Source of the DNA: Bacteroidota bacterium
Lineage (GTDB): Bacteria > Bacteroidota > Ignavibacteria > Kapaibacteriales > UBA2268
Length of the DNA: 64,000 nt
Reading direction: 5' to 3'
Assembly (NCBI GenBank): GCA_024278075.1
Contig: JAJRTW010000129.1
Span: forward strand, 7,522 to 71,521
The translations under genes and the position numbers were made by a program. The notes below the pieces were generated by a model. The model searched no databases, was not told the origin of the DNA, and was given only the letters and a program-made list of their open reading frames with translations. Shown one piece after another: positions 2,370 through 55,486 of the stretch (positions within the stretch are counted from its first letter, which is position 1; every line of letters starts with the position of its first letter).

Positions 2370-5300
2370 CTACTTTGTGAATATCACAGCCCTGGTGGCC
2401 ATGAACGGCCCGGATACTATTCTGATTATATAATATCCCGCAGGTATGTCAATGCCTGTTACATTGACTTCGTAATGCCCCGGTTTGTGTAAATCATTCA
2501 CTATTGTCTTGACATTTTCGCCCAATGTATTGATTAATTCTATCCGTGTGTTTGCCTTCAGGCCGATGGAATAATCTATTGTGAAAGCACTCGAGGCCGG
2601 ATTCGGGGCAATAGAATTCAAACTGTACTCTATCCCTGAAATGGTAATCAAACGGCCATCTACAAAACAAACACTGTCAAGCATTATCTTACGGGTTATT
2701 TCGGGCGGCTTGCAGGGAGCCTGAACTGCCCCGATAACGAATTCCGAAGTTTGAACCTCGCCCAGGCTAATAATAAAAGGTATCATCAGGATATTGCCAT
2801 TGAAAGGCGTCGGAATGCCACCAGAGCCTGTGATTTCCATAAGATTGGGCCGCAGAAAAACAGGCGTGTCCCAGGCCCACTGGCTTGCAGGCAATCCGGA
2901 CTGCAATTCTGCAACGGCATCCGGATTCATAATGGCTATCCCAGCCGAGTCCAATACCATCATGTTATCTTCAAAAGAGATGTGCAGTTTCATGTAATCA
3001 ATCGGGCCTTTGCTTAACGCAGCTATATTTGCGTTCAATGTAATTACACTGCCATTGCCGGGTTTGATGGAATAATCAGCCTCCTCCACGAACAGGTGAA
3101 TGAATTCGCCCCGGCCGGACAGTTCGCGCCTGATCTGTACGCCTTGCGAGTTGATAAAATCAATCGAAGCGCTATATTCCCTCTCCTCGGTTGGCAGAAA
3201 TGAGACTTCAATATTTTCAATGATTGATGGCTGAATAATCAAATCATCATCAAGAATAACTGCAAAAGCATCGGGGTCGCTGCCGGTGATGGAGATGCTG
3301 TCTTTATAGATAATCAGGTCAGTACTGCTCGACGGGTTTTGAATTTGGGTGGCCAATGTATCAATCTCACAAGCCAACTGCCCGCCGAACTCCATATTTC
3401 CCGAGCTGCCCGCAGTCACATCGCATTCGATGTTATAGGTGCCTTTAACAGATAAATTATAATCCGGGCCGATACCATCACCAATATCCGAATCGGAATA
3501 ATGTGCAATCCTGATTCCCGAAGTATTATCTGATTGGGGAGTGAAAGTAATATTAACAGAGATTTCGCCGCCATTGGCCGGAATTTCAAGGCCTCTTGGC
3601 GCCCCGCCGCCTGCCCAGCCGAAGTCGGCGTTGATATTGTCGAACACAAGGCTGTCGACTTTTGTTGGCACGTATATACTTGTATTTCTTAATGTCAAAG
3701 TGCCAATACTTGTGTCGCCTTTGATGGTGAATGGCCTTCCGCAATCCCAATCCACAACTTCGATTTGCGGCCATACGCCTATTCCGGCCAAAGCTCTCCG
3801 GATTGGCGTTTCAACTTGCCGGACTGTTACGATTAACGTATCGGAATAGGAATTCTCGTCCATTTCGGGCTTGAATCTCATGGGCAATAAATAAACATCA
3901 TTGGCCAAAATCTCAAGCGGAAACGATGGCAGGTCAAGTTCGAAAGCTGCCTGGGTGCCGGATTGTTCAATATTTTCGATAATGGCCGGAAGCGAGCCGC
4001 TATTGACAATTCTAATTGTAGTATCATTTACAGTATTCACGCGCCGCCGGCCCCAATCGACGGGTTCAACAGTTATATCGGAATCGAATCCTTCTCCGGC
4101 TAATTTTGTTTCGCTGTGCTCGCAATTTTCATCTAAGTTGTAGGTTATTGTTGCGGTTCTAATTCCCGGTGCCGTGGGTGTGAAAATCACTGTGAGGCTA
4201 ATGCAGCTGTCGGGCTCGAGGTTGACAGTGCCTATGCTTTCTTTTATGCTGAATTCTCCCGGGGTTGAATCATTCGTAATGATATCAGGCGTGACCGACA
4301 GTAATTCATCATTCGGGTTCCTGAAAATACAGGTAATCTCAGTTTCCAGTTCGACGCCGATATTTTGCTGGCCGACCCACACAGAGTCGATTGCTTCACC
4401 GCGGCAAATTCCCATGCCTGTAATATCGGCGCTCAGCGAATCCCCGCAGATGAAATCAACAGTCATAACAGCATTTCTGGAGAAAACATCGGAAGGCTTA
4501 ATAAATAATTCAATGTCAATTGCATTGCCGGGCGGGATTATGACGCCAATAATATTAGAGGTAATCCCAAAATCAAGTGCATCCGGCCCCGAAAATGAAA
4601 CATCGGAAATTTCAACCGGTAGTTCCCCGTCATTCTCAAGTGATTGGCTGAATACTTTGCCGCAAACAGAACCCAAAGTGCATTCCCCCAAATCAAAGTC
4701 GGGCAGATTAAACTTAGTTGATGGGGCGGTGACGGCAAATGACTCGGTAGTGAATTCGCTGCCCGGAGTAGAGCCTATTTTGGTTACGAAGATGTCCCTT
4801 TTCCCGGCACTAGTTACGGTGAATCCACCGAAGTCCCTCTGATTTTGAAAAGAGCCCGTGGAGTAGATACTGCCTTTGCTGTCGGTGTCGGTATTGGAGG
4901 AATAATTTTCGTTTATCCCCCCTTCGTATATATCAACTATGTTTAGGTCAAGGTCATAGACCGCAGTAAATAGCCTTGGGCTGGTTGCGTTTGGCAAATT
5001 TCTTTGAGGCCCGCCGGGGATTTGAATCTGAATCGAGCTTAAATACATACCCTGGACCATTATTTTAGGATTAGTGTCATCATGGACATATTTTATTCTT
5101 TGGCCCCATGCCTCAAATCTTGTGTAGAATCCTTTGGCCCCGAGGAGTGTTACTTTGGGGTTTGGCCCCTGGCTCGGATCGTATTTGGCAATGAAGCAGT
5201 ATCGTAAATCATCCTGCTCCACAGTCGGTGTCAGATTCCCGAATTTAACCGTCTGATAGCATGTGCCGGTAATATAAGCAAAGTTTGACGAGTCCGTGCA

Positions 5301-7040
5301 TACGCCGGTTGCGAAGTCATTATTCAAGCCGCCGGCCTGTTGCACCCAAATGGGATTGCCATCGGAATTATACTTAGCAATGAATATATCTTTATTTCTT
5401 ACACTCTGGATTTCAATATCCCCGAAGTGGGCGGTTTCTTCGAAGCTGCCGGTAGCATATACGAATAAATCATCATTCTGAACAGCAATCGAAGCGCCAA
5501 TATCATCTTCATTTCCGCCATTGGCTGTTGCCCACATATAACCGCGGGTGGCCTCGACTATTGCCCTGATTCTATAATTAACACCCACCTCCGGCGGTTT
5601 CCATCTGAGCTGCAAACCATAGGCATTGTTTGCAATCGCGGCCCAGGTGGTGCCATCATCAGTGCTATAAGAAAAGTCGACCGGTACGTTCCAGTCCACG
5701 CCGGCCCAGATTATATCGATAGTGTCGCATGTGGAAAATAATTCGCCGCCTGCGGGATTAATAATCCTTACTTGCGAGGTGCCGCCCACTAATGTTATTT
5801 GCGGAGGGCATGGATTGCCAACAAGAATTAATGATGCCTGCCTGTAAATCTTGGAAACGGCCTGGGTAAAGGTCACTTCTATGCTTCTTGATTTTCCGGA
5901 ATCAAGAAAGAAAGGAACGGTTTTGTCCGTTTGCCCGACATTTACGTCGGTAACGCTATAATAGTTGGGCGGTGATATGTAAATACTATCTACCTGAAAT
6001 CCGGTTACAGCAGAAGTGATGGTAACGGTGTCTTTCACCGGCACCCCAACATCAGGATTGCCAAACGAAAGTATGCTTGATGATCTGTCAACGTAGGCAA
6101 TGCTGGATTCGGGTGCTAAATATCTTCTCTCGATTAGCTCTCGGGCCAAATCTTTTTTAAATCGGATTTCCACATTCCTGATTCGGCTTTTCTCATCACA
6201 GCCGTAATATGACTCCCAAGTCAGTTCGCAAAGTGTTTTGGTCTGGACATCAAGGGCAATATATTTATAGATATTATCAAGCTCTTCTTTGTCATTCACA
6301 GAAAATGCCCTGCCGCCAGTTTCCCTGGAGATATAAGCCAGGTCCTTATTCATTGGCATTTGCAATGTAATCGAATATACCTGAATATTTGCATTTTGCA
6401 GCGAGTCGATAATCCTTGCTGTGGACGGATCTTTGTCTGGTAGCCCATCGGTAAGGAAAACCACAATTCTTCTTATGTCAGTCGGCCTTGATGACAACAA
6501 TTGGACAACCCCGTAGCGAGGGTCCAAAAAAGGAGGGTCATACCTTGTTATGCCAACCGGGACAACCGTATCCAAAGCACTAAGAAGCTGATCTTTATCG
6601 CTGCTGAAATTGCAAACGATATAAGAGCCTCTGGCAAATGAAGTAATCGCTAATTTTGTTCTTCCAACAAATTTCAATGTATTAATAAATGAAGTTGCAC
6701 CCTGAACAACCCAATTCCATCTTGGGTCCTCTTCCGGCTCTTTCATAGACAGGCTTTGGTCGAGAACAAGAACAACGCTTACTTCGGGGTCTTCATCGCG
6801 TTTGATACATTTAACCGTAACGCTTGCGTCAACATTCAAATTATCTTCCATAACAGTAAAGTTCGTATCGGCAAGGTCTTCGTAAGAATTGCCGGCCTGG
6901 TTTGTGGCAATAAAACTTGCTTTTACAGTTGGGAATTCATCGGTATTAATTTCCGAGATAGAAAATCCCTGGGATGATAAATCAAAATGCAGAAACAGCA
7001 TTAGAGTAAAATAAAAGATAAGAGTAGCGCCATACTTCAT
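2370..7040 (-). CDS. Large secreted vWA-domain / beta-propeller (SBBP-like) repeat protein with T9SS CTD
   Basis: Signal peptide at the N-terminus. vWA MIDAS-like segment VVLVLDQSLSM...FLTDG. Repeats such as DIFIAKYNSDGNPIWVQQAGG. C-terminal NPASSAFTIDYSI...YYIIRI sorting domain. Confidence 0.7.
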   Translation of the reverse strand: MKYGATLIFYFTLMLFLHFDLSSQGFSISEINTDEFPTVKASFIATNQAGNSYEDLADTNFTVMEDNLNVDASVTVKCIKRDEDPEVSVVLVLDQSLSMKEPEEDPRWNWVVQGATSFINTLKFVGRTKLAITSFARGSYIVCNFSSDKDQLLSALDTVVPVGITRYDPPFLDPRYGVVQLLSSRPTDIRRIVVFLTDGLPDKDPSTARIIDSLQNANIQVYSITLQMPMNKDLAYISRETGGRAFSVNDKEELDNIYKYIALDVQTKTLCELTWESYYGCDEKSRIRNVEIRFKKDLARELIERRYLAPESSIAYVDRSSSILSFGNPDVGVPVKDTVTITSAVTGFQVDSIYISPPNYYSVTDVNVGQTDKTVPFFLDSGKSRSIEVTFTQAVSKIYRQASLILVGNPCPPQITLVGGTSQVRIINPAGGELFSTCDTIDIIWAGVDWNVPVDFSYSTDDGTTWAAIANNAYGLQLRWKPPEVGVNYRIRAIVEATRGYMWATANGGNEDDIGASIAVQNDDLFVYATGSFEETAHFGDIEIQSVRNKDIFIAKYNSDGNPIWVQQAGGLNNDFATGVCTDSSNFAYITGTCYQTVKFGNLTPTVEQDDLRYCFIAKYDPSQGPNPKVTLLGAKGFYTRFEAWGQRIKYVHDDTNPKIMVQGMYLSSIQIQIPGGPQRNLPNATSPRLFTAVYDLDLNIVDIYEGGINENYSSNTDTDSKGSIYSTGSFQNQRDFGGFTVTSAGKRDIFVTKIGSTPGSEFTTESFAVTAPSTKFNLPDFDLGECTLGSVCGKVFSQSLENDGELPVEISDVSFSGPDALDFGITSNIIGVIIPPGNAIDIELFIKPSDVFSRNAVMTVDFICGDSLSADITGMGICRGEAIDSVWVGQQNIGVELETEITCIFRNPNDELLSVTPDIITNDSTPGEFSIKESIGTVNLEPDSCISLTVIFTPTAPGIRTATITYNLDENCEHSETKLAGEGFDSDITVEPVDWGRRRVNTVNDTTIRIVNSGSLPAIIENIEQSGTQAAFELDLPSFPLEILANDVYLLPMRFKPEMDENSYSDTLIVTVRQVETPIRRALAGIGVWPQIEVVDWDCGRPFTIKGDTSIGTLTLRNTSIYVPTKVDSLVFDNINADFGWAGGGAPRGLEIPANGGEISVNITFTPQSDNTSGIRIAHYSDSDIGDGIGPDYNLSVKGTYNIECDVTAGSSGNMEFGGQLACEIDTLATQIQNPSSSTDLIIYKDSISITGSDPDAFAVILDDDLIIQPSIIENIEVSFLPTEEREYSASIDFINSQGVQIRRELSGRGEFIHLFVEEADYSIKPGNGSVITLNANIAALSKGPIDYMKLHISFEDNMMVLDSAGIAIMNPDAVAELQSGLPASQWAWDTPVFLRPNLMEITGSGGIPTPFNGNILMIPFIISLGEVQTSEFVIGAVQAPCKPPEITRKIMLDSVCFVDGRLITISGIEYSLNSIAPNPASSAFTIDYSIGLKANTRIELINTLGENVKTIVNDLHKPGHYEVNVTGIDIPAGYYIIRIVSGPFMATRAVIFTK

Positions 7041-7132: not shown

Positions 7133-8203
7133 TTATGTTATAACGGACTGATTAAGGATTGAAAATGTCTTCTTGGTTGCGTCCATTTCCGCTTGAGTTC
7201 CAATCGGCAGTGTCAGCTTATTTTTTACATGTCCGAAGGGCAGGCCGATAAGCGTGGGCTTGCCAACCGGCTTGACCACCTGATCGATTACTTCTTTAAT
7301 CGTATAAGACCTGTTCGGATAGAAAGGCCTTCTGTAGTTCAATTCCTTAAAATGGCCAAAGATTATTCCGTTGCATTCATCGAATTTTCCGGCCAGAAGC
7401 AGTTGTGTTAACATTCGGTCAATTTTATAGGGGTGTTCCGAAACTTCTTCGATTAGTAGAATTTTATCTTTCGTATCTATCTCATAATCGGTGCCGAGTG
7501 TGCTTGTAAGCATAGTCAGATTGCCACCAACAAGAGTGCCGCTTGCCGAGCCTCCATTAATTGTCAATCCGCGGGGCACTTTAATTTCCACCGGCTCGAA
7601 GCTGCTACTGGCAAACAAAATTTTCTTCAGATTATTAACCGTGAATGAGTTGAAGGTAACCGAAGCCACAGGGCCGTGGAAAGTAACAAGGCCAGTTCTT
7701 TGGTAGACAGCATTCAGCAGTGCTGTAATATCGCTGAACCCGATAATTATTTTCGGATGCTCTTTGAACAGATTAAAATCGATCATAGGAAGGATTCTCA
7801 TAATCCCGTAGCCGCCTCTGCCGCAAAGGATTGCATCAATATCGTCGCGTTTCAGAAACTCCATAAGCTCCAAAGCACGCACTTCGTCGGGGGCGGAGAA
7901 ATAGCGGTATTGATTTCGGCTTTTCCGGATTGTATCGCCAACAACTATCTTACAGCCCATTTTCTTGAGTGCTTTATATCCTTTTGCTATTTCGCCCATA
8001 CTGGTAGGCGAGGCCGGAGCGGTGATGGCTACAGTGGAATCCTTCGCCAGGGCTTTGGGCAATAATATCTTCTCGCTGTTCGGGATTTCAGGTATTTCCG
8101 GAATGATAATATCAGGGCTGACACTAATTTCCTTTGCCTGCGATTTCATATAAACGGCAGACAGTCCGGTAACCGACAGAAATTTCCTTCTCGATAATTT
8201 CAT
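7133..8203 (-). CDS. ldcA: LD-carboxypeptidase (peptidase S66, muramoyltetrapeptide carboxypeptidase) with Tat signal
   Basis: Twin-arginine signal SRRKFLSVTG. S66 motifs ILCGRGGYG and GFSDITAL. Confidence 0.75.
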   Translation of the reverse strand: MKLSRRKFLSVTGLSAVYMKSQAKEISVSPDIIIPEIPEIPNSEKILLPKALAKDSTVAITAPASPTSMGEIAKGYKALKKMGCKIVVGDTIRKSRNQYRYFSAPDEVRALELMEFLKRDDIDAILCGRGGYGIMRILPMIDFNLFKEHPKIIIGFSDITALLNAVYQRTGLVTFHGPVASVTFNSFTVNNLKKILFASSSFEPVEIKVPRGLTINGGSASGTLVGGNLTMLTSTLGTDYEIDTKDKILLIEEVSEHPYKIDRMLTQLLLAGKFDECNGIIFGHFKELNYRRPFYPNRSYTIKEVIDQVVKPVGKPTLIGLPFGHVKNKLTLPIGTQAEMDATKKTFSILNQSVIT

Positions 8204-9168: not shown

Positions 9169-10704
9169 ATGAAAACACGTATTACCACACTCGCTATTCT
9201 CTTTGTCATATTTAACATTATCCCCTCCAATGCTATTGACGGACAAGCACGAGCCAAACCGGGGCACATTCCATTTCCCGGAATGAATGAACAGCAAGAA
9301 CTATTTCCGTCCGGACTTGGAGAAATGAACGAAGACGGTGCGGTAAGATTTATGAAGATGGGCGATGGGGTTCAAAGCAATCCGGGTTATCTTGTTGAAA
9401 GTGTAAGAGTGTATTCATTGGTTGATAGCAATACTAAATACATATACGCTTACAATGAAAGCAATCAAATATTAACTGAAACATCCGAAGGATGGGAAAA
9501 CGGTGCATGGGTGAATTATGAAAGAATAACCAACACTTATGATTCCGATGGTAATCTCCTTACTAATTCACAGCAAAGATGGGAAAACGGTGCATGGGTG
9601 AATTATGAAAGAAGAACCAACACATACGACGAGAATAGTAATTTATTAACATGGTTATACGAATTAAAAATTAGCGAAAAGTGGGTGGAATTAATAAAAT
9701 ACACCTACACATACGACGAGAATAACAATATGTTGACATGGCTACAACAAAGCGGTATTGATGATGAATGGGTAAATGTTTTCAGATTTTCCCATACATA
9801 CGACGAGAATAACAATATATTGACATTGCAGAGAGAGGACTGGAAAAACGAGGCATGGCTAATATACATGAGATATATAAACACCTACGACTCTGAAGGC
9901 AATTTAATTACAAAAATATTTTTACAATGGGAAAATGAAGAATGGCATGATTATTCCCGAAGCACCTACGACTATGATGATGAAGGCAAACAGCTGTCAT
10001 GGGTTAAAGCAACCTGGAAAAATGAAGAGTGGGTGGATTTTAGCAGAGAAATTAACACTTACGACATTAACGGCAATCTGATACTATGGACATCTCAAAA
10101 TCTGCAGAATGAAGAATGGGTGGGTTTTAGGCAGGAAACAAACACCTACGATACCGATGGCAATCTAAGAACATCTATATATCAAAGAATAAGAAACTAT
10201 GAATGGGTCAATGATTGGAGAAAAACTTACACGTACAACACCGACGGCAATTTAATAGTATGGTCATATAGTCTTTGGCAAAACGAAGAATGGGCAGATA
10301 ATGGATTCTATTTATCTTTTGAAGACTCCTATGGAAATTCTTTTGGTAACTATTACGGTTTCAGCATAGGAATTATATGGAGGAGTGCTACTTCTGTCGA
10401 GGATGAATCGGATGACAACTTCTCCGTAACGTCTTTCCCCAATCCGTTCTCCGGTTCCACTACAATAAATTATACTCTTGACAATCCCGCCCGGGTTCGT
10501 ATTAATATTTATGACAATCTCGGAATTAAAATAACTTCTTTGATTGATGAATATCAATCCGCCGGCGAACATCAGGCGATATTCAATGCAATAAAAACAG
10601 GCAATCGCCTAAAAACAGGCAATCGCCTGTCAGCCGGAATGTATTACTATACTGTTCAAATAAATAATCAATTTGAACAAGGGAAATTATTGCTGGTGAA
10701 ATAA
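9169..10704 (+). CDS. Secreted YD-repeat-like protein with T9SS CTD
   Basis: About 12 degenerate repeats W(E/K)N(G/E)xWVxxxRxTNTYDxxGNLLT (YD-like). C-terminus FPNPFSGSTTINYTL...GMYYYTVQI. In-frame 18-bp tandem duplication KTGNRLKTGNRL inside the CTD. Confidence 0.6.
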   Translation: MKTRITTLAILFVIFNIIPSNAIDGQARAKPGHIPFPGMNEQQELFPSGLGEMNEDGAVRFMKMGDGVQSNPGYLVESVRVYSLVDSNTKYIYAYNESNQILTETSEGWENGAWVNYERITNTYDSDGNLLTNSQQRWENGAWVNYERRTNTYDENSNLLTWLYELKISEKWVELIKYTYTYDENNNMLTWLQQSGIDDEWVNVFRFSHTYDENNNILTLQREDWKNEAWLIYMRYINTYDSEGNLITKIFLQWENEEWHDYSRSTYDYDDEGKQLSWVKATWKNEEWVDFSREINTYDINGNLILWTSQNLQNEEWVGFRQETNTYDTDGNLRTSIYQRIRNYEWVNDWRKTYTYNTDGNLIVWSYSLWQNEEWADNGFYLSFEDSYGNSFGNYYGFSIGIIWRSATSVEDESDDNFSVTSFPNPFSGSTTINYTLDNPARVRINIYDNLGIKITSLIDEYQSAGEHQAIFNAIKTGNRLKTGNRLSAGMYYYTVQINNQFEQGKLLLVK

Positions 10705-10775: not shown

Positions 10776-11411
10776 CTACTTCAACTGCTTGGAGATAAGC
10801 TCCAATGATGAGATAGCTTTGCGTTCGTCGTCTGTTACTTCGCTTTTAACCACTCCGACACCCCGCAGATAATACTGCCTTATATTCCGGCCTGCATAGA
10901 TGTAACAGTCATAGGCCCTGCCAGCGGGGACGGTTACCGTCCTTATGTCCTCCATCTTGAATTCATAGGACTCGAATCCGATCTCAGGGAAGTCGCTAAT
11001 CTCAAACAAAACGACATAGGATTGTTGCGAATCGTTCCAAAACCCATATAGGATCATTTTATCTTCCAGCTGCCCGGCCTGGCAATATGCAAATCCTATG
11101 GCCGAATCATTATCCATAATCTCGTAGGTATTATACCGGCCGAGATCATAATAATTCGTATCGATATTCTTTTTCCAAAGCATTTGCCCGCGATTATTCA
11201 AAGTTCTGACAATCGTAACAGGGCCCGCCTCGCCGGTCTCGGGGTTCACTGTGGCATACTCCCACATATTTCCTTCTACAAGCGGGATTACTCTGTCGGC
11301 CTGCGTTTTGGCAACAGAGATAACCTTAGGCAGAGTTCTCCTCGGCGAATCGCAGCTGGTCAGATATGCGACGAATAATAGGAATATGAAATATTTAGTT
11401 ATGTGAATCAT
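10776..11411 (-). CDS. Hypothetical lipoprotein
   Basis: Lipobox LTSC after a hydrophobic N-terminus. No recognisable domain. Confidence 0.4.
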   Translation of the reverse strand: MIHITKYFIFLLFVAYLTSCDSPRRTLPKVISVAKTQADRVIPLVEGNMWEYATVNPETGEAGPVTIVRTLNNRGQMLWKKNIDTNYYDLGRYNTYEIMDNDSAIGFAYCQAGQLEDKMILYGFWNDSQQSYVVLFEISDFPEIGFESYEFKMEDIRTVTVPAGRAYDCYIYAGRNIRQYYLRGVGVVKSEVTDDERKAISSLELISKQLK

Positions 11412-11518
11412 TACGTCAAATATTGATAATCTTAAGTAATAAACAGACGAATAGCTGCAATTTAACTATTTTTTGTTGATTACTCCATCCATGAAACTAC
11501 TGAATTATCTTAGGCAAT

Positions 11519-11880
11519 CACTGTCCGGTGAAAAATGGGAGACTCTCTGAATATAATCCTAATATGCAAGTTGTGTTCTATAATATGATTAATCATATCG
11601 TATGATATATGATGCTGTCATTCCGAGCTTGCAAGGAATCCAGTATTTATGGCTACAACCAAGTATTTAATCCCAATACAGTTCATTTAACAACAATCTG
11701 ATTTTATTTCGTATTTTGTTTTAGTCATGTGGCTTATTCAATATTGTCAACTGTTGTGTCATTCGTACTATGTCATTGCCGTGACTACGAAGAAGCAGCG
11801 AAGCTCAAACGGGGATCCATTATTCCATGCACTATCTAACTATAAAAAGATGGATTCCGGATCAAGTCCGGAATGACAAC
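11519..11880. mobile_element. MITE-like composite element (left TIR CACTGTCCGGTGAAAAATGGGAG; GTCATTCCGAGCTTGCAAGGAATCC and GGATTCCGGATCAAGTCCGGAATGACA modules)
   Basis: Same module set as the other family members. No ORF. Confidence 0.5.
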
Positions 11881-12029
11881 TATAATGATCTGTCATAATT
11901 AGATTAACAAGCCATGAACCAAATATTAAGTGAACAGTATTGGTATTAACCCTCATTCTCTTTTACCACGAGCTAAAGCACGTGGCTATTGAAAAATATA
12001 ACATTAGATTGTATCCCTAACCTAATTCC

Positions 12030-13202
12030 CTAATTGTATTCGGGCAATGTATGTTCCCTACCCTTATTCTGCTCTTTTAAGTAATCCATCAGCGGGGCGA
12101 AATAATCAACCATCGGTTTGGCGCTCATATCCGAGCCGATGCTGGTTTGCAGCAATTCCCTCCAATCGACAGAAGCACCGGGCTTCATAATATCATAGAG
12201 GAATTTGCCGGTTTCCTTGCTGCCCCAGTAATTCGTAGAATGAGGGTCTTGCTTCAATATGTTCTTGGCGATATAATCATGGAACTGGAACAAAAGTACA
12301 TAGGAAATTGCATAGTCGTAATACTGTGCGGGGTCGTTGTTGATGTGTGTTTTCGAAGTGGCATCGCAATACTCCTCCCCGCGCTCTGCCGGAGGTACTA
12401 TCCCCTGATATTCTAATTTCAAATTCCACCATTTCTTGTTGAATTGCCCGGCATCCAGATTATTCGAATATAATTCCCACTCGAAATCAGTCATCACTCC
12501 TGCACCCCATGGGATAAAGACAATATATTCGAGAGCTTCTTTGAGCAATGTCATAGTTTCATCGGTTTTCGCATTTTCGTCGATAAGGCCAAGCCCGGTG
12601 AGGAATGGCTTCTGCAGGGAGGCAAGGCCGAGCAGGCTGCCGATTGCTTCGTGATAGCCCCTGTTGGCTCCGGTGCGAAGGACTATCGGGACATCTGGGT
12701 TTGTGTAGGCATCGAAATAATATATATGGCCGAGTTCGTGCAGAGTGGTTGCCCACCAGCGGGTGTTGTTGACAATACTCATCAGTGAACGCAGGTCGTT
12801 GTTCAGGTCGATATGCCAGGCCGAGGCATGATTGTTCTTCTTATAGTCCGCATCATCGGGAAGCGGATAGAGGCTCGACAGCTCGTAGAAAGAATGTGGC
12901 AGCGAATCCAGCCCGAGGCTCACATAGAACCTTTCGCCTTCCTTGACTATCCAGTTGCCGGGTTTTTCTTTCAATACTTCATCAAGGTTCATACCCTCGA
13001 CATTCACTAAGGCCGTCCAGTCCTGCCCCCACCTGTTGGGCATCCAGTGCGCCGGCAGCATATCCGGCACTTCCTTGCCATATTTTTCTGCCAATGTATA
13101 TCTTGCCCAGGTGTGCAATTCACGATAAAGCGGCCAGATGTCTTTAATCATACTCTGGCAAACCGCCCTCATTTCTTCAACTGTCATGCCATATTCAGAC
13201 AC
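12030..13202 (-). CDS. Peptidyl-dipeptidase A (ACE-like, MEROPS M2) catalytic portion, C-terminal 390 aa of a split gene
   Basis: HEXXH zinc motif TLHELGHIYY, GANRGYHEAIG and KWWNLKLEYQGIVPP align residue-by-residue with the ACE C-domain. Starts at GTG directly after an in-frame TAA. Confidence 0.75.
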   Translation of the reverse strand: MSEYGMTVEEMRAVCQSMIKDIWPLYRELHTWARYTLAEKYGKEVPDMLPAHWMPNRWGQDWTALVNVEGMNLDEVLKEKPGNWIVKEGERFYVSLGLDSLPHSFYELSSLYPLPDDADYKKNNHASAWHIDLNNDLRSLMSIVNNTRWWATTLHELGHIYYFDAYTNPDVPIVLRTGANRGYHEAIGSLLGLASLQKPFLTGLGLIDENAKTDETMTLLKEALEYIVFIPWGAGVMTDFEWELYSNNLDAGQFNKKWWNLKLEYQGIVPPAERGEEYCDATSKTHINNDPAQYYDYAISYVLLFQFHDYIAKNILKQDPHSTNYWGSKETGKFLYDIMKPGASVDWRELLQTSIGSDMSAKPMVDYFAPLMDYLKEQNKGREHTLPEYN

Positions 13203-13844
13203 TTAATAGGCGAAGAAATCGGAGTAATCCAAAGCCTGAACCGAAGCGTTCCTCAAGTGCCGAAGATTCTGCAATCCCTCTTTTAGGCCCTTACCCACTT
13301 CCTTGGACGCCTCCCATGCCTTCAATCTTTCCGTTAGGTCGGACGATTCGTCGAGGATTTTGTCGATGTCGTTGGTGGAAACCGGTTTGCCGTCAATCTG
13401 AAAATCAAATCCGAATAAGTCCTTGGTCTGTTTCGTATCCGCCTTGATTTTTTCCTTCACAACAGAATCAGCCGTAGCCGGGTTTCTTCCGGCGGTGTAA
13501 ATGATAGCGTCTAATTGCCTGGCCTGCAGGCCGGTTAATTTATTCTTATCGGCAAGGAAACCCTTAGCGCTTGTAATATTGTCGATACTGCCGGTGAATT
13601 TGGCATATTCTTCATTAGCTTTTTCGGCTAATTGGGCGGTTATGGTATCGCCTTCGATAATTTTAGTATTTAGCAGCCACTCCGCTTCGGAGGATTTTGT
13701 AACTAATTTCTGGATTTCAGCATTATATCCGTCCAGATAAGCCTGCACGGAATCCCTTAATTGGGAATAGTCTTCGGCGGGCTGTTCTTGTTTGCCGCAG
13801 GAAATTAGTGTGGCCAGGAGAATAAGAGTCAGGATTTTTTTCAT
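13203..13844 (-). CDS. N-terminal 213 aa of the same M2 peptidase (lipoprotein signal), terminated by in-frame TAA at 13203-13205
   Basis: Lipobox LISCGK. LKAWEASKEVGK...LRNASVQALDYSDFFAY matches the ACE N-terminal lid region. Same frame as, and contiguous with, 12030-13202. Confidence 0.65.
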   Translation of the reverse strand: MKKILTLILLATLISCGKQEQPAEDYSQLRDSVQAYLDGYNAEIQKLVTKSSEAEWLLNTKIIEGDTITAQLAEKANEEYAKFTGSIDNITSAKGFLADKNKLTGLQARQLDAIIYTAGRNPATADSVVKEKIKADTKQTKDLFGFDFQIDGKPVSTNDIDKILDESSDLTERLKAWEASKEVGKGLKEGLQNLRHLRNASVQALDYSDFFAY

Positions 13845-13903: not shown

Positions 13904-14118
13904 TTATAACAGTTCTTTTTTATTTATTCCAGCTTGTTTTAATATTTCAAGTAAGGTGCCTTTCGGTAAATCCTTTTTGTGATAAGGAACAATAACCCTG
14001 TTTTTGTTTTCAGGATTGAAGTAAATTCTATGGCTTCCTTTTGTTCATTTTATAACGAAACCTTTTTTAGAAGTAGCTTAATTATCTGGTCTGGTGTTAG
14101 GACAGGAGATTTAGGCAT
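13904..14118 (-). pseudogene. hicA: hicA toxin pseudogene (one A6-run frameshift plus an in-frame TGA)
   Basis: Across two frames reads MPKSPVLTPDQIIKLLLKK / KGFVIK*TKGSHRIYFNPENKNRVIVPYHKKDLPKGTLLEILKQAGI, matching the HicA consensus (GFxLVRxKGSHxxF...KDLxxGTLxxILKQAG). ATG overlaps the hicB stop (ATGccTAA). Confidence 0.55.
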
Positions 14119-14395
14119 GTGACTCAACAGAAAGATTATACTCTAAAGTTTGATCGTCACTGGGAACTTCTTCTCCATCCGCAATAAGGTCATCAATATA
14201 AATCCCAATGGCCTCTCTGGCCATATCAATAGATTCATCTATAGTATCTCCAAAAGTAACACAACCGGGGAGGGATGGAACAATTACGGTATAGCCGCCT
14301 TCGGGTTCTTTTCTGAGTATGATCCTCTTTCTGAGTATGATCCGGGAATTAAGAATCTTCATGGTTTTCTTCTTCGGGTAAATTAATTGATTCAA
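14111..14395 (-). CDS. hicB: HicB-family antitoxin (UPF0150)
   Basis: GGYTVIVPSLPGCVTFGDTIDESIDMAREAIGIYIDDL. In-frame 18-bp tandem duplication RIILRKRIILRK near the N-terminus. Confidence 0.7.
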   Translation of the reverse strand: MNQLIYPKKKTMKILNSRIILRKRIILRKEPEGGYTVIVPSLPGCVTFGDTIDESIDMAREAIGIYIDDLIADGEEVPSDDQTLEYNLSVESHA

Positions 14396-20802: not shown

Positions 20803-23800
20803 ATGCTTTCTCTTTCTGTTTCTCCCATAGATAGTATTAGTCGCAATTGGCTGATACCCCTGGCCTTGATATTTGTGTTTATTGGCCTGCCGTCACCCAA
20901 TCTATCCGGCAAATCCAGCGATGGTATCGAAATCATTTCATCATCGGCTTCTTCATTAGTCATTTCATATACACCTAACCTGCGTTCTGTGGGCAATGTT
21001 TTCACCGAAAGCGACATCCGTACTCTTCGCCCGGAAATCGCAGGATCTCGAATTATCGACGCCAATCCGGGGGCGCCTGCAACTATTGCTGCTATCAGTA
21101 AGATCACGGTTCCGGGGCGTAATGGATTCCATTTGGCTGATGTAAGAATTGGAAACGTAAGGGAAATCCCGGGTAGAATGTTCCCATATCCGACGCTAAC
21201 GCTCGAAGGCGGACTGCCGGCAGAGAAGTATAAGATGAATTATAATTCCTATAGAAATTATAATATGCCTGTTTGGGTTGAGCTTAATTATTCCGGGATT
21301 GCCCGCGACAGGCATGTGGCAGAATTGAAAATAGTTGCCGCAAGATATAACCCATCGGCCAATATGATTGAAGTGCCGGAGAGAATTCTAATTACAATAA
21401 ATTTTGATGATGAATTAATTGATTATAAATCCGCACCGACAAAAGCTAATTTCGACCCCCAATTCTCGCTGAACCACTTTCAATCTAAAGATTGGCGTAT
21501 TAATATTATTGATTCTGATGATGATATTAAATCAAATAACACAGATAAGATGAAATCCAACTCTATACAGTCCGAGAATGAAGAAATCAGCTCGGGCAAT
21601 TGGGTGAAAATAAGAATCCCGGCCGAAGGCATTTACAAAATCGATAGGAATATGCTATCCGGCCTCGGGTTTAATTTGTCATCGGCCGATGCCGCTACTT
21701 TGAAAATATTCGGAAACGGCGGCAAAGAGCTTAGCGAATTTGTTCCCGATGCGGTTAACAACGAAATGAACCAGCAGCCTGTTTTGGTTAGGACAAGCGG
21801 CAATGGCAGCTTTGCCTCGGTGATATTTTATGCCGCTCCGGCCAATGGTTTTGAATATATCGACGGTGAGTTCTCGCATTATATAAATCACTACAGCGTA
21901 GATAATTATTATCTGCTGACCTGGGGAGGCTCCGCCGGATTGCGTGCTGACGGGCTTGAAACTCCCACAGGGCAACCGGATTTTGAACCTGATACTTATT
22001 ACGAAAGATTATTTTATGAAGAAGAATTATACAGCCCCTATAAAGCAGGCTCCGGCCGGCAATTCTTCGGAAGAACTTATTTTAGCTTAACAGACGAGTT
22101 CATTAGGATGTTGCATAATCTTGACAAAAGCGGCACCATTAAATTCAGGTTCTCCGTGGCGCATAGATCCGACTATACCGGCCAGTTCACCGTTAGCCAA
22201 AGCAATAATACGATAACAACAATTCCGATGAAACCATCATCAAGCTTATATCAGGAGGCTTATAGAAATGAAGTGTTTGTTGATTATCCGGCGGCGCAAA
22301 TTCCATCTGATAACAGAATCGGCCTAAGATTTAATTACACGAATTCCAACGGACAGGCAAGCGCTACGGCATTCTTCGATTATTACGAAATTCACTACCC
22401 GCGATCATTTTTGCCAATTGCAAACCAGATAGGTTTTTATACCGACACCTCGTATAGGGGCATTGTTCAGTACAGGATAAATGAATTCTCCGGCCCTGAA
22501 ATAATCGGTTTTGAGGTGACCAACCCCGGGCAGCCTAAAGTGCTGGCCAATACCGACAATTCTATTAAGAGTTTGTTCGTATTTAAGACTGCCGTTGAGG
22601 ATTCCCCTAAGAAATTCTTCATTTCATCACAATTCAAAACACCATCAATTAAAACAACTGAGTTTGCCAACCTGCGTTCCGAACAATCGGGGGCGAATGT
22701 GGTGGTCATATCGCCCAAGGCTTTCATCGAATCTGCAATTAGTTTTAAGAATTACAGGGAATCGTCCGGTGAATTAACGGTTAAAGTTGTTAACGTAGGC
22801 CATATATATAATGAGTTTGGCAGCGGCGTTCAAGACGTTACGGCCATAAGGGATTTCTTGGCCTATGCTTATTCGAATTGGGAAACAAAGCCTGAATACG
22901 TTGTTCTTTGGGGCGACTGGCATTATGACTATAAGAACGTGCAAACGGAAAAACCGAATTTCATACCGCCGTATGAATCATTGGACGATACCAACATGTT
23001 CGATGCGATTCATACAACCACAACCGACGATTACTATGCGAGAATAGTAGGCAACGATATGGAAATCGACCTTGCAATAGGCAGGATAACGGTGGACTCA
23101 CCCCGAATGGGCCATTGGATGGTTGATAAAATAAAAAATTATGAAAAAAGCTCGGGTACGGACTCGTGGAGAACTACTGTGACGCTTGTAGCCGACGACG
23201 GGCCGGCCGGGAGAGATGAAAATGACGGGGCAAGGCACACTGTGCAGTCAGAAACCCTGGCAAAATACTATATCCCCGGGGATATGCAGATTAAGAAAAT
23301 ATATCTGGTTGACTACCCGACGGATTATCTTCCCAACGGAAGAAGAAAACCCGGCGCTACTGCCGATATGCTGACAACAATAACCACTACCGGCACATTA
23401 ATGCTCAACTGGCTTGGGCACGGCAATCCTCAGGTATGGGCCCACGAATCGGTTTACGACAGGGAACTCACAACACCTCTTATGACGAATATGAATAAGT
23501 TGTTTTTTGTCACTGCCGCAACTTGTGATTTTGGCAGATTCGACAAAACCGATGTGAGAAGTGGCGCCGAAGAAATGTTACTAAGTGATGTTGGCGGAGC
23601 CATAGGTGTATTCTCTGCAACGAGAGTTGTCTACTCTCAGCAAAATGCTGACATCAATAACTATTTCTACAATAATGTTTTCACAAGGAACGAGCTGACT
23701 GGCCAGCACCCCCGCCTTGGTGAAATAATGTACACGGTGAAGCAGAAATATAATAGCCAAAATGATCAGAAATTCTTTCTATTGGGCGACCCAACGATGA

Positions 23801-24891
23801 GACTGCTGATACCAAACCTCCAGGTAAAAATTAATTCTATCAACGGCATAACAATTACCGATAGTACGGAGATTCAATTGAAAGGCCTGTCGCGGGTTCG
23901 GATTTCCGGTTCGGTAATCAATGCTGCCAACAATGAAATTAATACTTCATTTAATGGCACGGCAATTGTTTCCATGCTCGACGGCGATGAAAATATTCAT
24001 ATTGTAGATATAGATGGCTATAACTTTAATTTTGTGAAATACGGCGGAGCTTTGAACAGAAGCGCCTATGAAGTGACAGCGGGCGAGTTTGAAGCAAGTT
24101 TTGTTATCCCGAAGGATATAAGCTACAGCGAGAGCAAAGGCCGGCTTTATACGTATGCGTTTACCGAGGACAATAGATTTGCAAAGGGTGTATCGAGGAA
24201 TTTCAGAATTGAAGGCCTGGATACCAGTGCTTTGGATGACAACACCGGGCCGGTGATTTCCGCTTTTATTGATTCAAGAAAATTTCAAAATGGCGGCATT
24301 GTCAGGCTCAACCCACTATTAATAGTCGATCTGTTCGATTCCACCGGCATTAATTCTACGGGGATTGGCATAGGCCATAATATTGAAGTATGGATAGACG
24401 ACAACCCAAAGCCTATTGATTTAACCGATAAGTTCTTCACTTCATTGCAGGACAATCGCTATGGCACCGTCCAGGATATATTATATGAATTGAAGCCGGG
24501 CAATCATAAAGCCTTAATTCGGGCTTGGGATGTTTCAAATAATTATACTACCGCAGAGATTAGTTTTAGAATCGTATCGTCGGAAGAGTCTATTCACCTG
24601 AGCGAATTGCTGAGCATTCCAAATCCGTTTATTGACAAGACAACAATTTCGTTCAGGCATAATATTGCTCCCCCATTCAATGCGGAACTAAATATTTTCT
24701 CGCAAAACGGACAATTATTGAGAACAATCAAAGAAAGAATAAATACACCGCTTTATGCGGAGATCCCCTGGGACGGATTGGACAATAGCGGATTGCCGGT
24801 TCCCATTGGTGCGTATGTTTATTCGATATTGGCCGATACAAGATTCGGCAACGAAGTGATGATTGGCTCTGCGGGCATTAAGATGAAATGA
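20803..24891 (+). CDS. porU: PorU-like T9SS C-terminal signal peptidase (peptidase C25, gingipain family) carrying its own CTD
   Basis: C25 catalytic dyad context LNWLGHGNPQVWAHE (His) and FFVTAATCDFGRF (Cys). C-terminal IPNPFIDKTTISFRH... sorting domain. Lies immediately upstream of a PorV homologue, as in Porphyromonas and Flavobacterium. Confidence 0.65.
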   Translation: MLSLSVSPIDSISRNWLIPLALIFVFIGLPSPNLSGKSSDGIEIISSSASSLVISYTPNLRSVGNVFTESDIRTLRPEIAGSRIIDANPGAPATIAAISKITVPGRNGFHLADVRIGNVREIPGRMFPYPTLTLEGGLPAEKYKMNYNSYRNYNMPVWVELNYSGIARDRHVAELKIVAARYNPSANMIEVPERILITINFDDELIDYKSAPTKANFDPQFSLNHFQSKDWRINIIDSDDDIKSNNTDKMKSNSIQSENEEISSGNWVKIRIPAEGIYKIDRNMLSGLGFNLSSADAATLKIFGNGGKELSEFVPDAVNNEMNQQPVLVRTSGNGSFASVIFYAAPANGFEYIDGEFSHYINHYSVDNYYLLTWGGSAGLRADGLETPTGQPDFEPDTYYERLFYEEELYSPYKAGSGRQFFGRTYFSLTDEFIRMLHNLDKSGTIKFRFSVAHRSDYTGQFTVSQSNNTITTIPMKPSSSLYQEAYRNEVFVDYPAAQIPSDNRIGLRFNYTNSNGQASATAFFDYYEIHYPRSFLPIANQIGFYTDTSYRGIVQYRINEFSGPEIIGFEVTNPGQPKVLANTDNSIKSLFVFKTAVEDSPKKFFISSQFKTPSIKTTEFANLRSEQSGANVVVISPKAFIESAISFKNYRESSGELTVKVVNVGHIYNEFGSGVQDVTAIRDFLAYAYSNWETKPEYVVLWGDWHYDYKNVQTEKPNFIPPYESLDDTNMFDAIHTTTTDDYYARIVGNDMEIDLAIGRITVDSPRMGHWMVDKIKNYEKSSGTDSWRTTVTLVADDGPAGRDENDGARHTVQSETLAKYYIPGDMQIKKIYLVDYPTDYLPNGRRKPGATADMLTTITTTGTLMLNWLGHGNPQVWAHESVYDRELTTPLMTNMNKLFFVTAATCDFGRFDKTDVRSGAEEMLLSDVGGAIGVFSATRVVYSQQNADINNYFYNNVFTRNELTGQHPRLGEIMYTVKQKYNSQNDQKFFLLGDPTMRLLIPNLQVKINSINGITITDSTEIQLKGLSRVRISGSVINAANNEINTSFNGTAIVSMLDGDENIHIVDIDGYNFNFVKYGGALNRSAYEVTAGEFEASFVIPKDISYSESKGRLYTYAFTEDNRFAKGVSRNFRIEGLDTSALDDNTGPVISAFIDSRKFQNGGIVRLNPLLIVDLFDSTGINSTGIGIGHNIEVWIDDNPKPIDLTDKFFTSLQDNRYGTVQDILYELKPGNHKALIRAWDVSNNYTTAEISFRIVSSEESIHLSELLSIPNPFIDKTTISFRHNIAPPFNAELNIFSQNGQLLRTIKERINTPLYAEIPWDGLDNSGLPVPIGAYVYSILADTRFGNEVMIGSAGIKMK

Positions 24892-24952
24892 TCGAAATAA
24901 TTGTTGAGCCAAGTGGTTAATAAATAATGTTATTGATGAATAATAGTTTTAG

Positions 24953-25086
24953 TGAATAATAGAATTAAAGAAAATAATAGAATTAAAGAAAATAATAGAA
25001 TTAAAGAAAATAATAGAATTAAAGAAAATAATAGAATTAAAGAAAATAATAGAATTAAAGAAAATAATAGAATTAAAGAAAATAAT
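24953..25086. repeat. 18-bp tandem repeat AGAATTAAAGAAAATAAT x ~7.5 in the porU-porV spacer
   Basis: Perfect head-to-tail copies. It generates the spurious LILLFS-repeat ORF on the opposite strand. Confidence 0.8.
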
Positions 25087-25372
25087 AATAAATAATAATA
25101 AAGATAAGAGTGCATAGGCTGGTGGAAATGAACAAGAACTGAGTATCGGGTTTTTGCCATCACCGCCGAATTAAAGTGCGGCCCGGCTAATGCCTGCATT
25201 TTCATTCAATATATAATTCCATTTAAACTTTGCATGGCTATCAGCCGCAGCATGTGAAAATGGTCGAAAATTTATTTAAATTATTTGGTGATTAGAAAAG
25301 TTTATTAGCAATTGAAAAAATATTAGAAATATAAATTCGTAATAATATAAATGTTATAATAAGGAATGAATT

Positions 25373-26500
25373 ATGTTTATGAGGAAGCTAACGATGAAAA
25401 TGATATTAAAGGTGTGCCCGGCAATTGTGATAATTGCATTGTTGCTGCCATGCAATAATCTCTTTGGCCAGGCCGGAGGCTCTGCAGTGCCGTTCATATC
25501 GATTTCGCCGGACGCCAGGGCCAGTGGAATGGGCGAGGTAGGCACAGCCATAGCCGATGATATAAATGCCATATATTGGAATCCCGGTGGATTGGCGTTT
25601 TTGGATTATTTTGATTACGGCGATGATTTTGACATGGATGAAGAATTAATACCGTATCGTCAGGTTGCTTTATCTTACTCGCTTTGGCTGCCACAGTTTA
25701 ATGCCGACCTGTTTTACAGCTATCTAACAGTTGGCCAGTATTTTGAAGATTTAGACGGCACGGTTGCCTTCAACTTTATCTTTATGAATCTTGGCGAGTT
25801 TACTAAGACAAGCGCACAGGGCACAGTATTGGGGAAGTTCATGTCCAATGAATTCGCCGCGGGGTTGTCTTATGGCACTATTATCGCTCCGGATTTGGGG
25901 GTTGGCTTTCAATTAAAATATATTCAGTCTAATTTGACACCAACATCAGTGCAGGGCCAGGATGCAGGCACCGGCATTAGTGCTGCTTTCGATATTGGAG
26001 TGCTGTGGAAACCGCAGAGCCTGGATTTTCTTGATATTGAAGACCGGTTGGCGCTGGGATTGAACCTTCAGAATATTGGCCCGAAGATGACCTATATAAA
26101 AGAATCCGACCCATTGCCCTCCACTCTCCGCATGGGCATTGCTTTTGATGTGGTTAAGGATGAATTCAATGAGCTCACATTTGCTTTTGATTTTGCTAAA
26201 TTATTAGTTAAACGCGATTCATTGGGATCTGACCCTTTGCCGAAATCGCTTGTTTCCTCATGGGAAAACCGGGGGGCGGAATTGTCTTTCGGGATGGAAT
26301 ACTGGTACGAACACGTAGTTGCTTTAAGAGCAGGATATTTCACGGAACCGGCGGTGCTGGGCAATAGGAAATATTATAATTTCGGGGCCGGAGTGCGCTA
26401 TGATATATTCAGATTAGACTTTAGCTTTATCAATACAATAGAAGAAAATCACCCGCTGGCAAATACTATGCGATTCTCGATGCTGATTGATTGGGAATAG
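25373..26500 (+). CDS. porV: PorV/LptO-family T9SS outer-membrane shuttle protein
   Basis: N-terminal signature AVPFISISPDARASGMGEVGTAIADDINAIYWNPGGLAF is typical of PorV. About 375 aa, beta-barrel-like, and adjacent to the porU homologue. Confidence 0.7.
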   Translation: MFMRKLTMKMILKVCPAIVIIALLLPCNNLFGQAGGSAVPFISISPDARASGMGEVGTAIADDINAIYWNPGGLAFLDYFDYGDDFDMDEELIPYRQVALSYSLWLPQFNADLFYSYLTVGQYFEDLDGTVAFNFIFMNLGEFTKTSAQGTVLGKFMSNEFAAGLSYGTIIAPDLGVGFQLKYIQSNLTPTSVQGQDAGTGISAAFDIGVLWKPQSLDFLDIEDRLALGLNLQNIGPKMTYIKESDPLPSTLRMGIAFDVVKDEFNELTFAFDFAKLLVKRDSLGSDPLPKSLVSSWENRGAELSFGMEYWYEHVVALRAGYFTEPAVLGNRKYYNFGAGVRYDIFRLDFSFINTIEENHPLANTMRFSMLIDWE

Positions 26501-37668: not shown

Positions 37669-38958
37669 ATGCAGCGAAACAGATTAAAAAAATTCCGTAG
37701 TGGTGATAATATCAACAGGGAATCAGACAGCCGGTTGATTTTCAATAAAACAGTTATATCCAACGGGATTCGGGTAATTACCGAAGAAGTTCCCAATGTG
37801 GAATCATTTGCTCTCGGTATATTCATCAATGCCGGTTCGCGAGAGGACCTCCACCACCCCGGGATTGCGCATTTTCTTGAGCATGCCGCCTTCAGGCATA
37901 CCCGCAGCCGCACTTCCAGGCAAATTGCGTCGCAATTCGAATCCATCGGGGCGTATACCAATGCCTACACTTCTAAGGAATACACTTGCTTCTATGTTCG
38001 GGCATTGAAAAAGAATTTCAGGAAATCGCTTGAGCTTCTGATCGATGTATGCCTGAACCCCGCACTTGCCGAACGGGATATTGAGAAGGAAAGGCCTATT
38101 CTGATCGAAGAGATTAATTCTTATGATGATGATGCTGAGGACCAGATTTTTGATTTGGCGGACAGCGTGATGTTCCCCGGGCATCCGTTGGGCAATGTCA
38201 TAACCGGCGACAAGCAATCGGTATCGAGAATATCGCAGGCCGACATTGTTGATTTTAAGAACAGCCATTATCACCCCGAAAATATTTTGATAGCTGTTGC
38301 AGGGAATCTGCCGCATTCGAGAATTAATAGTCTTGTGGAAGGATTTACTGCTGATATTCAGGCGGTTTCCAATGATTATCAGAGAAGCTGGCCCGGCGCT
38401 GTTGCACCCTCAAACCTGAGTATTAATAAGCCAATTCAGCAATCGCACTTCCTGCTTGGCAAACGAATTGGCGGCATTGATGACGGCGAAAGGTATCCAC
38501 TGGCATTGATTAATGTACTTTTTGGCGATGGCATGAGTTCGCGGCTGTATCAATCCCTGAGGGAGAAGAACGGCCTTGCCTATAATATTTATTCTTCGAT
38601 TCATCTGTATTCCGATTGCGGGACTTTTTATATTTATGCCGGTTTCGACAGAGCTAAAAAAACGAAAATTGAAAGGCTAATATATCGTGAAATTGAAAAG
38701 CTCGGTAAATTGAAATTGACTAAAGTGGAAATTGCAAGGGCAAAGGAGCAGCTCAAATCCGGTATAATTATGGAAATGGAGGGCCTGGCCGAAAGGATGG
38801 CTTCGCTGGCCAAAAGTGAATTCTACCTCGGCAAAAGGGAGGAGGTCTCCGAGATTCTCGATAATATTGACGCTATTTCAAACGATGAACTCAACGAAAT
38901 CATCTCGAAATATTTTACCTCGGACGGATGGTCGGAAGTGAGTATAATGCCTGAGTAA
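37669..38958 (+). CDS. Peptidase M16 (insulinase/pitrilysin family)
   Basis: Inverted zinc motif HFLEHAAF (HxxEH). Confidence 0.8.
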   Translation: MQRNRLKKFRSGDNINRESDSRLIFNKTVISNGIRVITEEVPNVESFALGIFINAGSREDLHHPGIAHFLEHAAFRHTRSRTSRQIASQFESIGAYTNAYTSKEYTCFYVRALKKNFRKSLELLIDVCLNPALAERDIEKERPILIEEINSYDDDAEDQIFDLADSVMFPGHPLGNVITGDKQSVSRISQADIVDFKNSHYHPENILIAVAGNLPHSRINSLVEGFTADIQAVSNDYQRSWPGAVAPSNLSINKPIQQSHFLLGKRIGGIDDGERYPLALINVLFGDGMSSRLYQSLREKNGLAYNIYSSIHLYSDCGTFYIYAGFDRAKKTKIERLIYREIEKLGKLKLTKVEIARAKEQLKSGIIMEMEGLAERMASLAKSEFYLGKREEVSEILDNIDAISNDELNEIISKYFTSDGWSEVSIMPE

Positions 38959-54232: not shown

Positions 54233-54325
54233 GCCTATTACTTCGGGTTGTTTTCTTAGTTATTTTGCCTCGGTGTGGCAATAGAAGAAGTCATAAAATA
54301 TATGTAGGATAATAACAAATATAAT

Positions 54326-54775
54326 ATGAAAATTAAGCTAAACTGGGGGTGGGCAATAGTCCTTTTTTTTATTTTGTTTATAACTGCATTGCTTTCCTTC
54401 GTCGTATTCACAACAACTGTTCATAACGATCTTGTGGCCGTTGATTATTACGAGCAGCAGATTACTTACCAGCAGCAAATCGATAAAGTCAAAAGAACGC
54501 AGAAGCTTGGCCGGCAATTGGCTGTGCGGCAGGGCAATGATTTTCTTGCTATAACATTCCCGGATACTTTCGCCGTGGATTCGATTGCCGGGAAAATCAT
54601 TTTCTTCCGGCCCGATGATGCAAAGAAAGATTTTACTATTGATATACTAACTGACTCGAACCTGAGGCAAGTGGTGTCGACCAAAGGCCTGCATCGCGGG
54701 CTGTGGAAATTAAGAATCGACTGGGCCGCCGGCGACAGTTTGTATTATAACGAAGAGCAAATTATACTTAGGTGA
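54326..54775 (+). CDS. FixH-like single-pass membrane protein
   Basis: About 150 aa with a single N-terminal TM, immediately after ccoG, as in ccoGH(IS) clusters. Confidence 0.5.
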   Translation: MKIKLNWGWAIVLFFILFITALLSFVVFTTTVHNDLVAVDYYEQQITYQQQIDKVKRTQKLGRQLAVRQGNDFLAITFPDTFAVDSIAGKIIFFRPDDAKKDFTIDILTDSNLRQVVSTKGLHRGLWKLRIDWAAGDSLYYNEEQIILR

Positions 54776-55486
54776 TTGCAATTGGATTTATTATCCGGAT
54801 TTATGATAGGGCTGCTTGGCAGTTTCCATTGCATTGGAATGTGCGGGCCAATAGTGTTATCGCTGCCTTTGGGCCAGCCCGGGGCTGCATCGCTGATAAT
54901 CCACAACGCTCTATATAATTTCGGACGGGTGTTGGCATACATGTTCCTCGGATTAATTGCCGGAGCAATCGGCCAGTCGATTTCCTTTGCCGGCTATCAG
55001 GAAGTATTGTCGGTTTCATTGGGGATACTTATCCTGTTATTATTATTTGCACCACGCAAAATAAAATCGTTATTTCTCGATATTCGACTAATTAAATCCG
55101 CATCAGAAAAATTCAGGTCATTTTTTGGAAGTAAATTAATTGCCACATCGAACACATCGATGCTTATAATTGGCGTGCTGAATGGATTTCTGCCCTGCGG
55201 ACTTGTCTATTTGGCCCTGGCCAACGCTGCTGTTTCGACAAGTGTTTATGGCTCTGCTGCGGTGATGTCCGCCTTTGGCCTTGGGACTATCCCTATGATG
55301 GCGGCAGCGTTTTTTCTTAAGAGGATTATCACTCCAAACTTAAAGCGGAAAATCAATAAATTTATTCCGATAGGAGTGGCGCTGATAGCCCTGCTGTTGA
55401 TTCTGCGCGGCCTGTCGCTTGGCATTCCGTTTATCAGCCCGATACTTCCCGATGCCGCCGGCGGTGCTATAATGGAGTGCCATTAA
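54776..55486 (+). CDS. DsbD_2 / UreH-like (sulfite-exporter TauE/SafE-annotated) polytopic membrane protein of the cbb3 maturation cluster
   Basis: GSFHCIGMCGP motif in TM1. 6 TM helices. Confidence 0.5.
   Translation: MQLDLLSGFMIGLLGSFHCIGMCGPIVLSLPLGQPGAASLIIHNALYNFGRVLAYMFLGLIAGAIGQSISFAGYQEVLSVSLGILILLLLFAPRKIKSLFLDIRLIKSASEKFRSFFGSKLIATSNTSMLIIGVLNGFLPCGLVYLALANAAVSTSVYGSAAVMSAFGLGTIPMMAAAFFLKRIITPNLKRKINKFIPIGVALIALLLILRGLSLGIPFISPILPDAAGGAIMECH

Follow-up and report, generated by a model that had tools for sequence, protein, structure and literature searches.

The window analysed here, a stretch of 64,000 nucleotides, carries the gene of an ACE-like peptidyl-dipeptidase that is interrupted by one in-frame TAA codon. 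The best explanation, to which we assign a probability of roughly 0.65, is that an ordinary bacterial M2 gene was inactivated by a recent and real nonsense mutation, leaving a very young pseudogene. As read from its sequence, the locus is a disrupted member of Peptidase family M2 and not a gene for a functional enzyme. We infer both that function has been lost and that the base call reflects the organism rather than the assembly.

The M2 locus occupies one minus-strand frame (12030..13844) that comprises 604 codons and a terminal TAG and is broken at codon 214 (Table 1). The N-terminal piece starts with ATG, begins MKKILTLILLATLISCGK and ends with ...SDFFAY before the TAA; the lipoprotein signal lies here, as do the N-terminal helices of the ACE fold. 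The C-terminal piece, opening on GTG, reads (V/M)SEYGMTVEEM...HELGH...HEAIG...KKWWNLKLEYQG...PEYN up to the TAG; it holds the catalytic site and is without an export signal. The sole stop between the two pieces is the TAA at 13205..13203, which stands in the context ...GAT TTC TTC GCC TAT TAA GTG TCT GAA TAT GGC ATG.... The initial annotation had described two ORFs of 213 and 390 aa in one frame with only this TAA (13203-13205) between them, and the same layout was obtained when the coordinates were re-derived. Its assignment of the lipoprotein signal, HELGH and HEAIG to a full-length M2 frame is likewise borne out by the 604 codons and by matches to PF01401 on both pieces. In public gene calls the locus is represented by two products, one of 213 aa (P0121) and one of 373 aa starting from MIKDIW (P0250), which lie on one NCBI contig of 89,069 bp; both are singletons, present on that contig only.

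A six-frame scan of the 64-kb window for long open segments parted by one stop returned the M2 locus as the only real split gene. The eight other pairs were antisense shadows, or two separate genes (54326-55486). The latter two share a frame with only a TGA between them and thereby mimic a split gene, but this pair was rejected as a second case, since its members, FixH and DsbD_2, belong to distinct families.

Table 1. Coordinates of the interrupted M2 peptidase gene and its features in the window.
Feature	Coordinates	Strand	Details
Whole M2 (ACE-like) peptidyl-dipeptidase frame	12030..13844	-	1815 nt, as in the intact genes of L001 and L002
N-terminal piece, 213 codons and premature TAA	13203..13844	-	PF01401 positions 6-181, E 4.1e-9
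C-terminal piece, 390 codons from GTG	12030..13202	-	PF01401 positions 192-577, E 8.6e-84
Premature TAA, codon 214	13203..13205	-	GAA (Glu) in the two closest relatives with DNA
Lipobox L-I-S-C, residues 13-16	13797..13808	-	By eye from sequence; signal peptidase II type
HELGH zinc/catalytic motif (His369, Glu370, His373)	12726..12740	-	Invariant in 30 homologues; aligns with HEMGH of ACE
HEAIG with third zinc ligand Glu399	12639..12653	-	Invariant in homologues; aligns with HEAIG of ACE

Both pieces score above the 23-bit cutoff of PF01401 (Peptidase_M2), with 36 bits for the N-terminal piece and 283 bits for the C-terminal piece, and the joined 604-residue sequence is collinear with the chains of ACE and ACE2 (E 5e-117 for somatic ACE, about 1e-60 for ACE2). 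The consecutive coverage of PF01401 and the collinear ACE/ACE2 alignment argue that the continuity of the two pieces is not due to chance. An NCBIfam search gave no matches for the M2 locus; NCBIfam has no model of the M2 family. The N terminus, MKKILTLILLATLISC, contains a typical lipobox, hence the intact product would be an exported, lipid-anchored peptidase. Cys16 of this lipobox is nearly invariant across homologues. The gluzincin site is complete, with HEXXH at residues 369-373 and the downstream Glu399 in HEAIG. The fold was assessed on an AlphaFold model of P0001, an intact relative that is 91% identical and stands in for the window protein (pLDDT 88.5, pTM 0.87). The single, mainly helical ACE fold of ~600 residues was recovered in this model, for which Foldseek gave TM-scores of 0.83-0.87 against ACE2 structures; residue 214 sits within helix 210-218, in the confidently modelled core.

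The initial annotation regarded M2 peptidases as uncommon in bacteria, a view that has to be given up. Of 8,000 scored candidates, at least 4,716 proteins matched at E<=1e-20; the lengths of the best 120 all fall within 576-613 aa. Where the best matches carry names, these are 'M2 family metallopeptidase' or 'peptidyl-dipeptidase A'; their sources include Ignavibacterium, Bacteroidota and Vicingus. Peptide patterns derived from this protein alone located intact copies in 69 species-representative genomes, including those of Pontibacter, Psychroserpens, Mangrovimonas, Calditrichia and Marinicaulis, and in 36 metagenome contigs. ACE-like peptidases are thus not rare in bacteria, and Bacteroidota, Ignavibacteria and related groups have intact homologues in abundance. 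This agrees with the statement that many bacteria have ACE homologues (PMC3354321, PMC3235092).

One bacterial homologue, XcACE of Xanthomonas axonopodis pv. citri, is described as an active periplasmic dipeptidyl carboxypeptidase (Riviere et al. 2007, Gene 399:81, as cited in PMC3354321 and PMC3235092). Going by these secondary descriptions, XcACE is, like the product of the window gene, a single-domain bacterial M2 protein of about 600 aa that is exported. It differs in being described there as soluble, periplasmic and proteobacterial, whereas the window protein bears a lipobox and is of the FCB clade; the likeness is drawn from the description of XcACE. Proteobacterial homologues are about 30-33% identical to the window protein. 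By the precedent of XcACE, the intact protein would be expected to have peptidyl-dipeptidase activity. Much closer in sequence are M2 proteins from genomes and MAGs of Ignavibacteria, Kapabacteria and Bacteroidota (for example P0001 from Logan SRR29092999, P0002 from GCA_964613245.1 and P0028 from Ignavibacterium sp.), which are 599-613 aa long, share 64-91% identity over the whole length and have the same lipoprotein-type N terminus and HELGH/HEAIG site. They are uninterrupted, with Glu or Gln at codon 214 in place of the TAA of the window. Local synteny with the window extends to DUF2279 and an uncharacterised lipoprotein of ~210 aa in L001, and to HicB in L002. Human ACE (N and C domains) and ACE2 have the same fold and zinc site and a collinear sequence, at about 27-28% identity; the animal proteins differ in their membrane anchor, a C-terminal helix or a collectrin domain, and ACE also in being a tandem duplication.

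The window gene and its counterparts in L001 (GCA_964613245.1) and L002 (SRR29092999) are each exactly 1815 nt long and align without gaps at 82-84% nucleotide identity. Equal length and gap-free alignment identify the break as a substitution and not an indel, in line with the initial annotation, which had spoken against a homopolymer indel. At codon 214 the window has TAA, compared with GAA in both L001 and L002; this is a G>T change of the coding strand, equivalent to C>A at 13205 of the plus strand. A comparison with orthologues, which had been proposed as a check, gave Glu at this codon in the three closest relatives (P0001, P0002 and P0249; 88-91% identical, all 604 aa), P0249 being the one at 88%, and GAA in the two for which DNA was available. 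Codon 214 is covered by 95 homologous loci, of which 75 have Q at this position, 17 have W (as does ACE), 2 have E and 1 has K. None of the 95 has a stop or a break there, and orthologues naturally split at the same point, which had also been considered, were thus not found. One near-full-length match without stops was obtained for 78 of 107 loci. The alignments point to a single G>T transversion that is specific to the window sequence.

Some homologous loci are broken at other positions, all of them away from codon 214: L089 carries a nonsense codon at W267, and frameshifts interrupt L053 and L087. The in-frame stop in L089 (Ga0214472_10243074, 601-1722), which aligns to Trp267 of the window, is either an independent nonsense change or an error.

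None of the searches brought up a second contig of the same species, and neither the protein search nor the genome and metagenome scans went beyond 91% identity. When metagenome contigs were scanned for the exact pattern, the first base of the stop being left as N, there were 0 matches. Protein-guided scans of genome and metagenome contigs found nothing closer than 72%, and a junction-centred protein search yielded distant short fragments only.

Apart from the stop, the gene shows no decay. Pairwise dN/dS against L001 and L002 is 0.04-0.07 in the N- and C-terminal parts alike, and the window branch has the smallest dN with no elevation, the branch values being rough because dS is near saturation. 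Across 30 intact homologues 174 columns are invariant and 93 near-invariant; the window sequence agrees with all of the former (174/174) and with 89 of the latter. The three departures other than the stop (I115, M268 and N359) are common to the window and its nearest relatives. Neither dN/dS nor the 174 invariant columns revealed further lesions or relaxed constraint in the M2 gene. Since the rest of the gene is without decay, the stop is, as far as these sequence comparisons indicate, either evolutionarily very recent or an artefact. Recent pseudogenisation or a nonsense polymorphism, one of the options in the initial annotation, is favoured by the GAA codon of the relatives and by the absence of other decay.

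Under the explanation that we prefer, the intact protein would have been a periplasmic or outer-membrane lipoprotein that trims oligopeptides. A G>T transversion would have converted the Glu codon 214 from GAA to TAA, so that translation would end after 213 residues and yield a fragment without the catalytic site. The leftover 390 codons would encode about two thirds of a single globular domain, with no export signal. A 213-residue fragment that lacks the catalytic site, together with a remainder that lacks the signal, suggests a loss-of-function allele. Young single-lesion pseudogenes of bacteria likewise have one nonsense substitution in a conserved gene with intact orthologues, and the M2 locus shows no difference in kind from them.

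A second decaying gene lies nearby. The remnant of a hicA toxin gene (about 13904..14118, minus strand) is located 60 nt upstream of the M2 gene and reads MPKSPVLTPDQIIKLLLKK, followed by a frameshift in an A-run and then by GFVIK-TGA-TKGSHRIYF...KKELL. Once repaired, it matches Pfam HicA_toxin with E 3.8e-21. Beside it, an HicB-like antitoxin ORF of 94 aa (14111-14395, minus strand) is intact. In the closest relative, L002, hicA is missing and just 106 nt separate HicB from the M2 gene that follows it. The presence of this two-lesion hicA pseudogene upstream makes gene decay in this genome plausible.

A mistake in assembly or base calling would account for the TAA just as simply as a real allele; in the initial annotation it figured only as a check. 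In that case codon 214 would be GAA in an intact gene, and the TAA a consensus mistake or a rare strain variant taken up by the assembler; we regard this as possible but rather unlikely. The lack of any other decay (174/174 invariant columns, dN/dS about 0.05) is also what an error predicts, and the fact that both pieces are singletons on one contig fits a metagenome-assembled genome. Moreover, other public M2 homologues are sporadically broken by clear assembly errors, with their neighbours fragmented too. Against an error, the other genes checked in the 64-kb window are all of full length, and their full-length Pfam coverage indicates that the assembly is not generally error-ridden. Assembly errors are mostly homopolymer indels, whereas the change observed here is a substitution in a non-repetitive context. 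In bacterial genomes, pseudogenes typically account for a few per cent of the genes. A substitution in the consensus that also happens to make a stop should be considerably less frequent per 64 kb than a genuine pseudogene, and this general expectation, too, speaks against an error. The clean window, the non-repetitive substitution, the frequency of pseudogenes and the decayed hicA upstream together favour a real allele over an error.

If the stop is real, the two pieces might in principle still work together, with translation stopping at the TAA and starting anew at the GTG (13202) or at the ATG five codons further downstream. A functional enzyme in two pieces, re-initiated at the GTG, had been suggested in the initial annotation and is now disfavoured; we consider it improbable. 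The arrangement TAAGTG, in which the stop directly abuts the GTG, can permit termination-reinitiation, and both halves are perfectly conserved, but this conservation is equally explained by recency. No Shine-Dalgarno site precedes the GTG or the ATG; most genes of this genome are likewise without one, and its absence is uninformative because the genome hardly uses such sites. The lipoprotein signal is present on the N-terminal piece only, and by eye the C-terminal piece has no hydrophobic leader. The N-terminal fragment would consequently be exported while the catalytic C-terminal fragment would be left in the cytoplasm. In addition, the break falls inside a helix of a single compact domain (helix 210-218 in the model of P0001), the three nearest relatives are one-piece proteins, and no locus of the 95 is split at codon 214.

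Short M2 fragments on long contigs were considered as a recurrent natural split and rejected, given their scattered breakpoints and shattered neighbouring genes. On L108 (ERZ25039516 contig_8250), L109 (ERZ25039550 contig_38633) and L110 (GCA_038142565.1 JAYQKF010000040.1), M2 is called in two or three pieces and neighbours are also fragmented, among them genes for DNA ligase, an acyl-CoA dehydrogenase and a sigma-54 activator; on one contig with a fragmented M2, DNA ligase is in four pieces. This pattern points to indel-rich assemblies and not to biology.

We attach slightly less weight still to a real TAA that is tolerated through low-level readthrough at TAA-G or through GTG reinitiation, which would make the product a down-tuned or two-chain peptidase. 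Least probable of all is that the TAA is decoded, by programmed readthrough, an ochre-suppressor tRNA or a reassigned TAA, to give the full-length enzyme: the intact 390 codons downstream are all that speaks for it, whereas TAA is the commonest terminator in the window and ends 16 of the 35 genes that Pfam supports, with the TAA-G context recurring in four of the 16; the six-frame scan revealed no other true gene with an in-frame stop of this kind; none of the four tRNAs of the window (Ser-GGA, Gly-GCC, Cys-GCA and Ser-UGA) has a UUA anticodon; and the stop is missing from the closest relatives, hence it is not a conserved recoding site. The in-frame TGA of the decayed hicA remnant is accompanied by a frameshift. 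An Rfam search of the window found no element besides the tRNAs, and no significant readthrough-promoting RNA structure was detected in the 120 nt around and after the stop (z -1.18; 22 of 200 shuffles fold as well). In view of the terminator usage and the lack of other in-frame stops, an alternative genetic code was rejected, as was TAA recoding.

The surroundings of the M2 gene give an impression of the host. Downstream, at 10776-11411 on the minus strand, lies a gene for a lipoprotein of ~210 aa with no Pfam or NCBIfam match (MIHITKYFIFLLFVAYLTSC...), separated from the M2 gene by 618 nt without ORFs (11412-12029). A ~210-aa lipoprotein occupies the same position relative to M2 in L001 (4002-4628), which suggests that it is a conserved partner of the M2 gene. 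Type IX secretion is represented by a 1362-aa Peptidase_C25 protein (PorU-like) followed by PorV (20803-26500, plus strand), and proteins with a Por_Secre_tail sorting domain are encoded at 2370-7040 (minus) and 9169-10704 (plus). These secretion genes and the Por_Secre_tail proteins place the host within the FCB (Fibrobacteres-Chlorobi-Bacteroidetes) group. The biotin carboxylase of the window is 73-77% identical to proteins of Candidatus Kapabacteria, Kapaibacterium, Ignavibacteria and Chlorobiota MAGs, and 92% identical to that of one relative. Together with the type IX components, it fits a probable position of the host in the uncultured Ignavibacteria/Kapabacteria branch.

The window further contains a cluster of the cbb3-oxidase maturation type (52784-55486, plus strand), consisting of a FixG-like ferredoxin (52784-54232), FixH (54326-54775) and a DsbD_2-family membrane protein (54776-55486). 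Its other peptidase genes are all intact: an S66 LD-carboxypeptidase (7133-8203, minus), an M16 insulinase-like peptidase (37669-38958, plus) and an S9 prolyl oligopeptidase (43256-45328, minus).

The M2 locus deserves annotation as one disrupted gene (pseudo), in place of the two proteins, 213 and 373 aa long, that are called there now. Provided that the stop is real, the locus would be a clean case of a gene caught just after its inactivation, and the secreted peptidase would be dispensable in this lineage.
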